Source of the DNA: a virus
Taxonomy: Duplodnaviria; Heunggongvirae; Uroviricota; Caudoviricetes
Length of the DNA stretch: 5,893 nucleotides
Virus record (IMG/VR): IMGVR_UViG_2778261277_000021
Coordinates: 1-5,893 of that record
Direction: 5' to 3' (one strand)
Shown: positions 3,268 through 5,517 of the stretch, one piece after another
Layout of the letters: the number at the start of each line of letters is the position of its first letter
Numbering within the stretch: position 1 is the stretch's first letter
Made by a program: the position numbers and the translations under genes
The notes under the pieces: generated by a model
The model's input: only the letters and a program-made list of their open reading frames with translations
Told to the model about the DNA's origin: nothing
Database searches by the model: none

Positions 3268-3297
3268 ATTTTTAACTGTATGGATAAACAGTGTCAA
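3268..3297 (-). promoter_or_regulatory. Sigma70-type promoter of the dinI-like gene
   Basis: Minus-strand reading: perfect -35 TTGACA (3297-3292), a 17-bp spacer, then an A/T-rich -10 (TAAAAA/AAAAAT, 3274-3268). The -35 overlaps the integrase stop codon. Confidence 0.6.
3274..3293 (-). promoter_or_regulatory. Second LexA (SOS) box, overlapping the promoter spacer of the dinI-like gene
   Basis: AACTGTATGGATAAACAGTG: CTGT-N8-ACAG with one mismatch in each outer arm. It is 8 bp from the first box. Confidence 0.7.
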
Positions 3298-4391
3298 GAG
3301 GTCTTATTTCTGCTCCTTTGGAGCTCTTCAAAACGATTATGTAAAGATTTCGGATACAGTTCGGTATATACCTGCCATAGCACGTTTAATGAACGATGCC
3401 CTGTAACCTGGGCGACTTCCTCAATACTAAAACCAGCCTCAAATAAGCGACTTGCCCCTTCTCTACGCAAATCATGGTATCGCAGATCTTTAATACCTAA
3501 TTTGCTTCTTACCCTCTGGAATCCCGCAGTAACAGAAGTGCTTTTATATGGAAAAATGAATTCTGATTTTTTGGGTTGTCGTTGGACGATATCCCAGGCT
3601 TCCCCAAGCAAGGCTACTTTCATATGGTTGCCTTCCTTTTTACGTGGATCTTTCCTGTCTCTTACGAGTATGGATTTTTGTTCCTGATCGAGATCCTCCC
3701 ATCGTAATCGGCATACTTCACCGATTCGCATACATGACCACACAGAAAATTTGAGGATATCAACGAACGGAATTTTTGAGCATTTATGTGTAGAGCGTTG
3801 TTGAAGACCTTCAATGAGCATGTCCAGTTCATCAGATGCCGGTCTACGATTACGACGATTTGATTTACCAATTAACCCAAGTTTAAGTAGATATGGACGA
3901 GCGGCTTTTGCTGGGTTTGATGTGTAATTAATTCCATATACAGGTTTGGCAGCATCCAGAACACTGCCAAGATAACTAACATCGTGGCTAACTGTAGCTG
4001 GACCTGCACCAGCGTTGTTTCTTAGCCTGCAATGTTCAATTACGTCATTTTCTGTCAGTTCAGATAGTTTGATCGCGGAGATGTCACTATCCATAAGCAG
4101 TTCCAGCACATATCTTTTAGTACGGCCTGCTTTACCTCCGGCATTTGGGTCATTTAAATATTTGTGTAGTAAGTCACGGACTGTAAGTCCGTCAACTGCA
4201 TTTGATGATGGAATGCCATATAGATCTAATTCCATCACTTTCTGTGTGCCCCATGTTTTGGCATGAGCATGTTTAGGGAATGTTTTGCTTTCCCTGTAAG
4301 TGATAACACCTTTTTCTTTGATAATCACATTACAGCGATAGCGTGGTGTGCCATCGGATTTTAGTCGTTTCTCTATGTTATAGTACGCCAT
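3294..4391 (-). CDS. int: Tyrosine site-specific integrase (dusA-associated integrase family)
   Basis: 365-aa ORF with RBS GAGG 7-8 nt upstream of the ATG at 4391. C-terminal catalytic region shows tyrosine-recombinase motifs: ...CMRIGEVCRLRWEDLD (box I Arg), ...LRYHDLRREGASRLFEAGFSIEEVAQVTGHRSLNVLWQVYTE (H-x-x-R, His, nucleophile Tyr). It is divergent from and 88 bp away from dusA, the known target of this integrase family. Confidence 0.9.
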   Translation of the reverse strand: MAYYNIEKRLKSDGTPRYRCNVIIKEKGVITYRESKTFPKHAHAKTWGTQKVMELDLYGIPSSNAVDGLTVRDLLHKYLNDPNAGGKAGRTKRYVLELLMDSDISAIKLSELTENDVIEHCRLRNNAGAGPATVSHDVSYLGSVLDAAKPVYGINYTSNPAKAARPYLLKLGLIGKSNRRNRRPASDELDMLIEGLQQRSTHKCSKIPFVDILKFSVWSCMRIGEVCRLRWEDLDQEQKSILVRDRKDPRKKEGNHMKVALLGEAWDIVQRQPKKSEFIFPYKSTSVTAGFQRVRSKLGIKDLRYHDLRREGASRLFEAGFSIEEVAQVTGHRSLNVLWQVYTELYPKSLHNRFEELQRSRNKTS

Positions 4392-4410
4392 TACACGACC
4401 TCGTTATTTC

Positions 4411-4447
4411 GGGTTCCCATAAAACGTGGGAACCTGTGCGGGAACCT
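4411..4447. repeat. Three copies of a 9-mer (T/C)GGGAACC(T/C) in the int-dusA intergenic region, one inverted and two direct
   Basis: GGGTTCCCA (4411-4419, reverse complement TGGGAACCC), TGGGAACCT (4427-4435) and CGGGAACCT (4439-4447). The first two can form an 8-bp stem with a 7-nt loop. Confidence 0.45.
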
Positions 4448-4479
4448 AACGCGAGAAAAATAGCCTGAAATGTTCAAAA

Positions 4480-5517
4480 ATGCACGATAATCATGAAACA
4501 CAAAAAATTAATCAAACCAGCGTGATGCCTGAAAAAACTGGTGTTTACTGGAATTCTCGGTTTAGCATTGCTCCTATGCTCGACTGGACGGACAGACATT
4601 GCCGCTATTTCTTGCGTCTGCTTTCCCGCAATACGTTGCTGTATACCGAAATGGTGACCACAGGGGCGATTATTCACGGTAAAGGTGATTACCTGGCGTA
4701 CAGTGAAGAAGAACATCCGGTAGCGTTGCAACTCGGCGGTAGCGATCCGGCGGCGCTGGCGCAGTGTGCAAAGCTGGCAGAAGCGCGCGGATATGATGAG
4801 ATCAACCTGAATGTCGGCTGCCCGTCTGACCGGGTGCAGAACGGCATGTTTGGTGCGTGTCTGATGGGTAATGCGCAGCTGGTTGCCGACTGCGTGAAAG
4901 CGATGCGCGATGTGGTGTCGATTCCAGTGACGGTGAAAACGCGTATTGGCATCGATGACCAGGACAGCTATGAATTTCTCTGCGATTTCATCAACACCGT
5001 TTCCGGCAAAGGCGAGTGTGAGATGTTTATCATCCACGCACGTAAAGCCTGGCTTTCGGGGTTAAGCCCGAAAGAAAACCGTGAAATCCCGCCGCTCGAT
5101 TATCCGCGTGTGTATCAACTGAAGCGTGACTTTCCGCATCTGACAATGTCGATTAACGGTGGTATCAAGTCGCTGGAAGAGGCCAAAGCACACCTGCAAC
5201 ATATGGATGGCGTGATGGTCGGGCGCGAGGCGTATCAGAATCCGGGTATTCTGGCGGCGGTAGACCGGGAGATCTTTGGTTCCTCGGATACCGATGCCGA
5301 TCCGGTGGCGGTAGTGCGCGCCATGTATCCGTACATTGAGCGTGAACTCAGCCAGGGGACGTATCTCGGCCATATTACCCGGCATATGTTGGGCTTGTTC
5401 CAGGGTATTCCTGGCGCGCGGCAGTGGCGGCGTTATTTAAGTGAAAATGCCCATAAAGCGGGTGCAGACATTAATGTGCTGGAACACGCGCTCAAACTGG
5501 TGGCGGATAAGCGTTAA
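4480..5517 (+). CDS. dusA: tRNA-dihydrouridine(20/20a) synthase DusA
   Basis: 345-aa ORF with the Dus-family FMN-binding TIM-barrel signature (...[16 protein letters not shown]..., ...[22 protein letters not shown]... with the catalytic Cys). Essentially the E. coli DusA sequence as recalled. The start is ambiguous between the ATG at 4480 and the ATG at 4525; neither has a clear SD. Confidence 0.93.

Follow-up and report, generated by a model that had tools for sequence, protein, structure and literature searches.

Organisation of the locus

The DNA analysed here is a stretch of 5,893 nucleotides from a virus record (Caudoviricetes; IMG/VR IMGVR_UViG_2778261277_000021, positions 1 to 5,893) and is referred to as the window. 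Its central features are a gene encoding a tyrosine integrase (int) and the gene dusA, which are divergently oriented with start codons separated by exactly 88 bp. Inside dusA lies a short core sequence, ATGCTCGA, corresponding to nt 97-104 of the annotated open reading frame (ORF), and the spacer between the two genes contains repeats of the heptamer GGGAACC. The window is, with a probability of about 0.95, the integrase-proximal junction of a temperate phage that is integrated site-specifically into the 5' end of dusA of Escherichia coli. Both the element family and the coordinate of the junction are already published, and this main finding is therefore an ordinary one. All window DNA to the left of dusA is prophage. 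The features are listed in Table 1.

Table 1. Features of the window: the integration module and host genes, followed by the remaining prophage genes
Feature	Position	Strand	Remarks
Tyrosine integrase, dusA-associated (DAI) family, 365 aa	3294-4391	minus	Pfam Phage_integrase PF00589, E=3.7e-21
int/dusA spacer, 88 bp	4392-4479		Phage-derived throughout; int-proximal arm of attP
GGGAACC repeat, inverted copy	4412-4418	minus	Candidate arm-type site 1
GGGAACCT, direct copy	4428-4435	plus	Candidate arm-type site 2
GGGAACCT, direct copy	4440-4447	plus	Candidate arm-type site 3, 12 nt after site 2
dusA, 345 aa	4480-5517	plus	Pfam Dus, E=7.8e-105; TIGR00742, 581 bits
PhidusA', replacement dusA 5' end, codons 1-32	4480-4575	plus	Phage-supplied
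Crossover core ATGCTCGA, dusA codons M33-L34-D35	4576-4583	plus	Identical in attP, attB, attL and attR
dusA remainder	4584-5517	plus	Host-derived, in frame with the phage-supplied 5' end
pspG	5651-5893	plus	Host chromosomal gene downstream of dusA
Baseplate J gene	to 822	plus	Begins before the window
Mu gp48-like gene	813-1397	plus	
Tail fibre gene	1401-2069	plus	
Tail-fibre assembly gene	2071-2505	plus	
Tail-fibre assembly gene, truncated	2477-2674	minus	Inverted
IS911-like (IS3 family) transposase gene	about 2646-2898	plus	3' fragment
DinI-like gene	2984-3232	minus	Part of the dinI-int-PhidusA' cassette

The att junction in dusA

Four attachment sites were aligned. The attP site of the phages mEp460 and SKA5 reads ...GCTCCTATGCTCGA continued by TAGGATGTACCG, and the attB site of strain BLR reads ...GCACCAATGCTCGA continued by CTGGACGGACAG. 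The window junction (attR) is composed of the attP left arm and the attB right arm, while the far junction (attL) of strain PigCaeca_2 is composed of the attB left arm and the attP right arm. The only stretch common to all four sites is ATGCTCGA, which places the strand exchange inside this sequence.

Ten phage genome records match the window from position 3250 with 96-99.6% identity, and the matches end at 4580-4585. The records include 1720a-02, Lys8385Vzw, SKA5, mEp460 and PhiR40_1; in direct comparison the match extends over 2889-4583 for SKA5 and 2888-4583 for mEp460. The agreement with free phage genomes holds as far as 4583 and is lost beyond it, which identifies codons 1-32 of dusA and all DNA upstream of them as phage-derived. 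The dusA part of the window is matched by all 5426 complete E. coli genomes, the integrase by 733 of them. In genomes without int the match begins at window position 4477 if they are of the K-12/BLR type and at 4567 if they are of the B2 type, as ATCC 25922 is, and the sequence of the empty-site genomes departs from that of the window in the interval from the dusA start to the core. Nine of the 32 residues encoded by codons 1-32 differ between the window and the K-12-type allele.

The same junction can be located in the published record. The dusA elements are described as having att repeats of 21 bp that are semi-conserved and fall in a conserved part of dusA, and Table S1 of that study lists a 39.6-kb phage lysogen in enterotoxigenic E. 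coli (ETEC) H10407, NC_017633.1 4684277..4723914 (Farrugia 2015, PMC4482086). The window matches H10407 at 4717966-4725224, where dusA starts at 4723811. The published island end, 4723914, is thus nt 104 of dusA and window position 4583, the last base of the core, and the base that directly follows the same core at the far junction is the published island start. The published Citrobacter rodentium attB string differs from the window sequence GCTCCTATGCTCGACTGGA in one of 19 positions.

The ATG at 4525 (M16) aligns with the start of the 331-amino-acid DusA of B2-type strains. Judging from this alignment, the functional start of dusA may be the internal ATG at 4525 rather than the annotated one at 4480, in which case the junction would lie at nt 52-59. 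Two promoters, that of int and the replacement one for dusA, are presumed to be located in the spacer. Conserved in many loci, just past the third repeat and about 60-72 nt away from the start codon of int, is an A-rich element (GAGAAAAATAG at 4455-4465 in the window, GATAAAGAAAAAATA in other lineages) that may be the -10 region of one of the divergent promoters. A direct repeat, GCCTGAAA, is present at 4463-4470 and 4527-4534, 64 nt apart, one copy ahead of the annotated dusA start and the other just past the internal ATG at 4525. This repeat may be due to chance.

The far junction

The far end of the prophage lies outside the window and was read in the relatives PigCaeca_2 and H10407. The closest complete genome is that of strain PigCaeca_2, which is 98.9% identical over the whole window and carries a prophage of about 37 kb. 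The far end in this strain has an annotated dusA pseudogene of 105 nt beside yjbLM and zur, with the same core, and the H10407 far junction also carries a 105-nt pseudogene of the dusA 5' end. A PrtN-family gene is found near the far end, across attP from int, in PigCaeca_2, mEp460 and EKP1, and H10407 has an entry in the prtN column of Table S1 of Farrugia 2015 (PMC4482086).

The initial annotation had been made from the window sequence alone, and most of its claims are borne out by these comparisons. It had expected the junction within the first 100-150 bp of dusA, and nt 97-104 falls at the low edge of that range. The predicted difference from strains without an insertion is seen in the dusA 5' region, with the change in identity at the core. 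The DNA left of dusA, with its tail genes and dinI-like gene, belongs to the element as had been stated, and the other boundary, placed outside the window, is about 37 kb away in PigCaeca_2. A repeat of the core at the far prophage end, together with the displaced dusA 5' fragment, is present in PigCaeca_2 and H10407.

The integrase and its family

The integrase is, by its sequence, a member of the dusA-associated integrase (DAI) family of Farrugia 2015, the assignment already made in the initial annotation. It shares 364 of 365 residues with the integrase of the H10407 island and 363 of 364 with that of phage 1720a-02. The residues R222, H306, R309, H332 and Y342 are invariant across integrase homologues in alignments of 14 and of 59 sequences. 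The divergent arrangement with dusA at 88 bp, likewise noted initially, has the same geometry in all of the 733 E. coli genomes with the integrase.

The AlphaFold model of the integrase has a mean pLDDT (predicted local distance difference test) of 85, with three strands and a helix in residues 2-58 (pLDDT 82-95). In lambda integrase the arm-binding domain has the order strand-strand-strand-helix. Full-length lambda Int aligns across the entire model with an identity of 16-19%. The protein is predicted to consist of three parts, an N-terminal beta-beta-beta-alpha domain (residues 2-58), core-binding helices and a catalytic domain that contains the five invariant residues. Pfam gave no significant match in the N-terminal 60 residues and a weak Int_N match at residues 72-165, and a sequence search of PDB gave matches confined to the catalytic domain. 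NCBIfam has no model for this integrase family, the XerA, XerC, XerD and integron matches all being below threshold. The closest characterised relative of the dusA integrases is reported to be the Rci shufflon recombinase (Farrugia 2015, PMC4482086), and the mEp460 record labels its own integrase INT_Rci cd00796.

Homologues were surveyed by alignment in one genome per species, which gave 80 loci with 52-99% identity. Linkage was counted where the upstream flank measured 1200 bp or more, which left 74 loci. The dusA gene lies divergently upstream of the int homologue in 53 of these, and in most dusA-linked loci a coding stretch for Pro-Met-Leu-Asp-Trp is kept at the expected place. The remaining 21 loci adjoin other genes, such as those for a DEAD-box helicase and 6-phosphogluconolactonase or upp, in agreement with the report that a minority of homologues use other sites (Farrugia 2015, PMC4482086). 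No tRNA gene was found near any of the 21 loci without dusA, nor in the window. Homologues in Xenorhabdus and Serratia (61-63% identity) are divergent from the 5' ends of the DEAD-box helicase, 6-phosphogluconolactonase and upp genes, which suggests that the strategy of replacing a 5' end is also used at targets other than dusA. The Vibrio-lineage integrases in the survey are just 55-57% identical to the window integrase. The record OM284015.1, named 'Elizabethkingia phage EKP1', combines an integrase of 67.5% identity with genes for DinI and PrtN and a dusA 5' fragment of enterobacterial appearance, and its stated host in the Bacteroidota appears doubtful.

Repeats flanking the core

Over its whole length the window has three copies of the heptamer GGGAACC, against 0.56 expected by chance, and all of them are in 4412-4446. 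The attP site of SKA5 has two further copies on the other arm, 43 and 54 nt beyond the core, and these two distal copies are also found at the far junction of H10407. The resulting layout has five sites: one inverted and two direct copies, the latter 12 nt apart, at 20-55 nt from the int start, and two direct distal copies.

An exact 6-mer direct repeat with a spacing of 10-13 nt, at most 80 nt from the int start, was found in 40 of 55 dusA-linked loci, compared with 4.5% of shuffled sequences and 9.6% of coding controls, and most of the remaining 15 loci have imperfect copies. The motif itself differs by lineage, with GGGAACC, GGGGTGC, GGTGTAC, GGTGTCC, GGGATAC, GGGGCAC, GGGGTAC and GGGAGAC as variants. 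The prediction that a lineage-specific motif should reappear on the opposite arm was checked in other phages. The Yersinia phage YeP2, whose integrase is 68% identical, carries GGGGTGCT at 37 and 49, an inverted copy at 21 and two more copies at +43 and +54. In EKP1 all five positions are occupied by GGTGTAC, and SMHB1 and C5a show a partial fit to the layout.

The repeats are probably arm-type integrase sites that co-evolve with a predicted N-terminal arm-binding domain, as the changing motif at fixed positions would suggest. The five-repeat layout was not found in the searchable literature, and the words 'arm' and 'arm-type' are absent from PMC4482086, PMC6328086 and PMC8409611.

The dusA 5' end of K-12-type strains

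The DusA N-termini fall into two types, native and element. Salmonella Infantis and the B2 strains of E. coli have the native type, with zur directly upstream of dusA. The element type, which in one form ends ...HWSGRFSVAPMLDW, is found in the window, in S. enterica subsp. houtenae and in lysogens of Kosakonia, Pluralibacter and Phytobacter. The N-terminus of K-12 and BLR (MHGNSEMQKINQTSAMPEKTDVHWSGRFSVAPMLDW) is of the element type. The first 107 nt of the K-12/BLR dusA are 86% identical to the element-borne copy of Kosakonia, and the K-12-type 5' end is 84% identical to that of the window (BLR compared with window 4477-4586) and unrelated to the B2/Salmonella type. Among the complete E. coli genomes the K-12 type is present in 4303 (79%) and the B2 type in 1123, which together make up all 5426. 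In the K-12 type yjbLM sits between zur and dusA.

The simplest reading is that the K-12-type dusA 5' end, which in its coding part looks like element DNA, is a fossil of an earlier dusA element. It is possible instead that the phages copied a native E. coli dusA allele and that the K-12 end is not derived from an element. A search for an integrase remnant upstream of the K-12-type dusA found none (best E=0.085). In S. enterica subsp. houtenae about 30 integrase N-terminal codons are left (63% identity, E=3.6e-8). The locus in this subspecies is a decayed dusA element that has kept the spacer and the element-type dusA 5' end and lost the rest of the integrase gene, and a plasmid-like zinc dehydrogenase gene is found upstream of it.

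If the K-12 end is a fossil, the phage of the window integrated into a dusA gene that had already been rebuilt, and if the K-12 DusA N-terminus is phage-derived, studies of DusA made with the K-12 protein concern a chimera. The idea of a K-12 fossil was not found in the searchable literature. Taken together, the two proposals, that DAI attP sites share a fixed five-site arm layout and that the K-12 dusA 5' end is the leftover of an earlier element, are considered to have slightly better than even odds.

The prophage body and the dinI-int-PhidusA' cassette

The dinI-int-PhidusA' cassette (2889-4583, about 1.7 kb) is 97-99.6% identical among phages with unrelated structural modules, and from these comparisons it appears to behave as an exchangeable module. 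Its carriers include the lambdoid mEp460, the Stx2 phage 1720a-02 and SKA5 with Mu-like tail genes. To the left of the cassette, the IS911-like fragment is found where H10407 and SKA5 have the remaining half of an invertible tail-fibre segment together with a Pin-like DNA invertase. The junction of this fragment is shared by just one of the 5426 genomes, PigCaeca_2.

Proposed mechanism and alternative explanations

In the proposed mechanism attP carries the divergent int, the spacer of 88 bp and, over 96 nt, an imitation of the dusA 5' end that leads into ATGCTCGA. This core encodes Met-Leu-Asp, conserved in the first beta strand of DusA. Strand exchange in the core joined the phage 5' end in frame to the host dusA from codon 33 and left a 345-amino-acid dusA intact, with the original 5' end shifted to the far prophage junction. 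The integrase would grip the core through its central and catalytic domains, and its N-terminal beta-beta-beta-alpha domain would bind the five repeats specific to the lineage, of which the spacer holds three and the other arm two. A lambda-like intasome would be assembled in this way, and excision, aided by a PrtN/RdfN-type factor encoded near the far end, would regenerate attP ...GCTCCTATGCTCGATAGGATG and attB ...GCACCAATGCTCGACTGGACG.

Several points weigh against parts of this account. The far end and the directionality factor are known from the sequence of a relative matching at 98.9% and not from the source strain. The IS911 fragment, in a prophage without an invertase, may mean that normal particle production has been lost. 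The protein proposed to bind the repeats is the integrase; it could instead be a repressor or a directionality factor. A simple sigma-70 scan of 3200-4700 found no promoter in the 88-bp spacer, the sole match being located downstream of int and ahead of the dinI-like gene, so that the replacement promoter and the expression of the hybrid dusA are argued from published analogy with a distant family member. The initial annotation had proposed that both the first codons and the promoter of dusA come from the element; this stands for the codons, since free phages match through 4583, and lacks a sigma-70 match in the spacer for the promoter.

The divergent dusA 5' end could in principle be a host allele, arisen by polymorphism or gene conversion, with int adjacent by coincidence or targeted to a tRNA. 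Strains of the K-12 type without int do have a 5' end 84% identical to that of the window, so that similarity alone is no proof of phage origin, but exactly this 5' fragment lies beside int in free phages and diverges at 4583. The same int/dusA geometry is seen in 733 genomes of E. coli and, of 74 species, in 53, which argues against coincidence, and the absence of tRNA genes from the window and from the surroundings of the 21 homologues without dusA argues against a tRNA target. This explanation is considered very improbable. The host allele, the coincidental adjacency and the tRNA target were each rejected on the attP sequences of mEp460, SKA5 and 1720a-02. A further alternative accepts the integration and holds that the module is now locked in, the prophage being defective and the int/att junction no longer recombining. 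Such a state would fit with the IS911-like fragment, which replaces the invertase along with one half of the invertible segment of the tail fibre, and decayed dusA elements do exist, as in S. enterica subsp. houtenae with its 30 int codons and element-type 5' end. Against this, the integrase gene is full length with a complete set of catalytic residues and encodes a protein identical in 363-364 residues to the integrases of isolated or integrating phages, free phages carry the very same core and three spacer repeats, and the far junction, the two distal repeats and the PrtN-family gene are intact in the closest genome, PigCaeca_2. A locked-in fossil is therefore unlikely.

The repeats might also be repressor operators, or sites for PrtN/RdfN, through which the divergent promoters of int and dusA' are controlled. 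It is true that three of the five copies lie between the divergent start codons, where promoters must be, and PrtN-type genes are frequent in dusA elements. However, two copies are located on the other arm at about 45-55 nt beyond the core, far from any int promoter, and the integrase has a predicted strand-strand-strand-helix domain. The integrase is moreover the only gene universal to dusA elements, and many of the islands in Table S1 are without a prtN entry (Farrugia 2015, PMC4482086). Operators or PrtN/RdfN sites are thus a tentative explanation, less probable than arm-type sites of the integrase.

Comparison with known systems

The dusA gene is a known integration hot spot, and the cassette of the window was catalogued in 2015 and tested experimentally in 2019. 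For annotation, the first 32 codons of dusA and the DNA upstream are to be regarded as phage DNA in lysogens of this kind, with the prophage boundary at 4583. The cassette moves between unrelated phages, Stx2 phages included, and the defined candidate arm sites make the attP of the DAI family testable.

The dusA islands have been described as replacing the 5' end of the gene, leaving the original at the far junction and excising as circles, and excision circles have been published for Acinetobacter and Pseudomonas islands (Farrugia 2015, NAR 43:4547, PMC4482086). The H10407 prophage of that study is like the one in the window in its dinI-int-PhidusA' cassette, core, junction position, Mu-like tail genes and chromosomal site between zur/yjbLM and pspG. 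It is unlike it in keeping the DNA invertase and the full invertible tail-fibre segment and in having a different tail-fibre gene.

The Stx2 phage 1720a-02 (KF030445.1) is 99.6% identical in nucleotide sequence over window 3250-4584. It integrates 100 bp into dusA of C. rodentium, with a seven-base att core, a PhidusA' ORF and attP circles detectable during infection, and the int-side junction is named attL in that paper (Balasubramanian et al. 2019, PLoS Pathog 15:e1007494, PMC6328086). The phage differs from that of the window in its structural module and in its type, lambdoid and Stx-converting, and was studied in C. rodentium.

A Vibrio dusA element supplies a working promoter and restores the dusA frame, and the PrtN-like RdfN is the directionality factor needed for its excision (Durand et al. 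2021, PLoS Genet 17:e1009669, PMC8409611). IMEVchUSA3 and other Vibrio dusA elements thus share with the window the target and the strategy of restoring the 5' end, but they are SGI1-related mobilizable islands under the control of IncC plasmid AcaCD and not phages. Lambda Int, a heterobivalent tyrosine recombinase, and its attP resemble the system of the window in the predicted three-domain build and in having five short repeats over both arms round a short core; they differ in that the target in the window is a protein-coding 5' end which needs to be rebuilt, and the repeats here are candidate sites. SXT/R391 elements, found at the 5' end of prfC, have a different integrase family and a different target.

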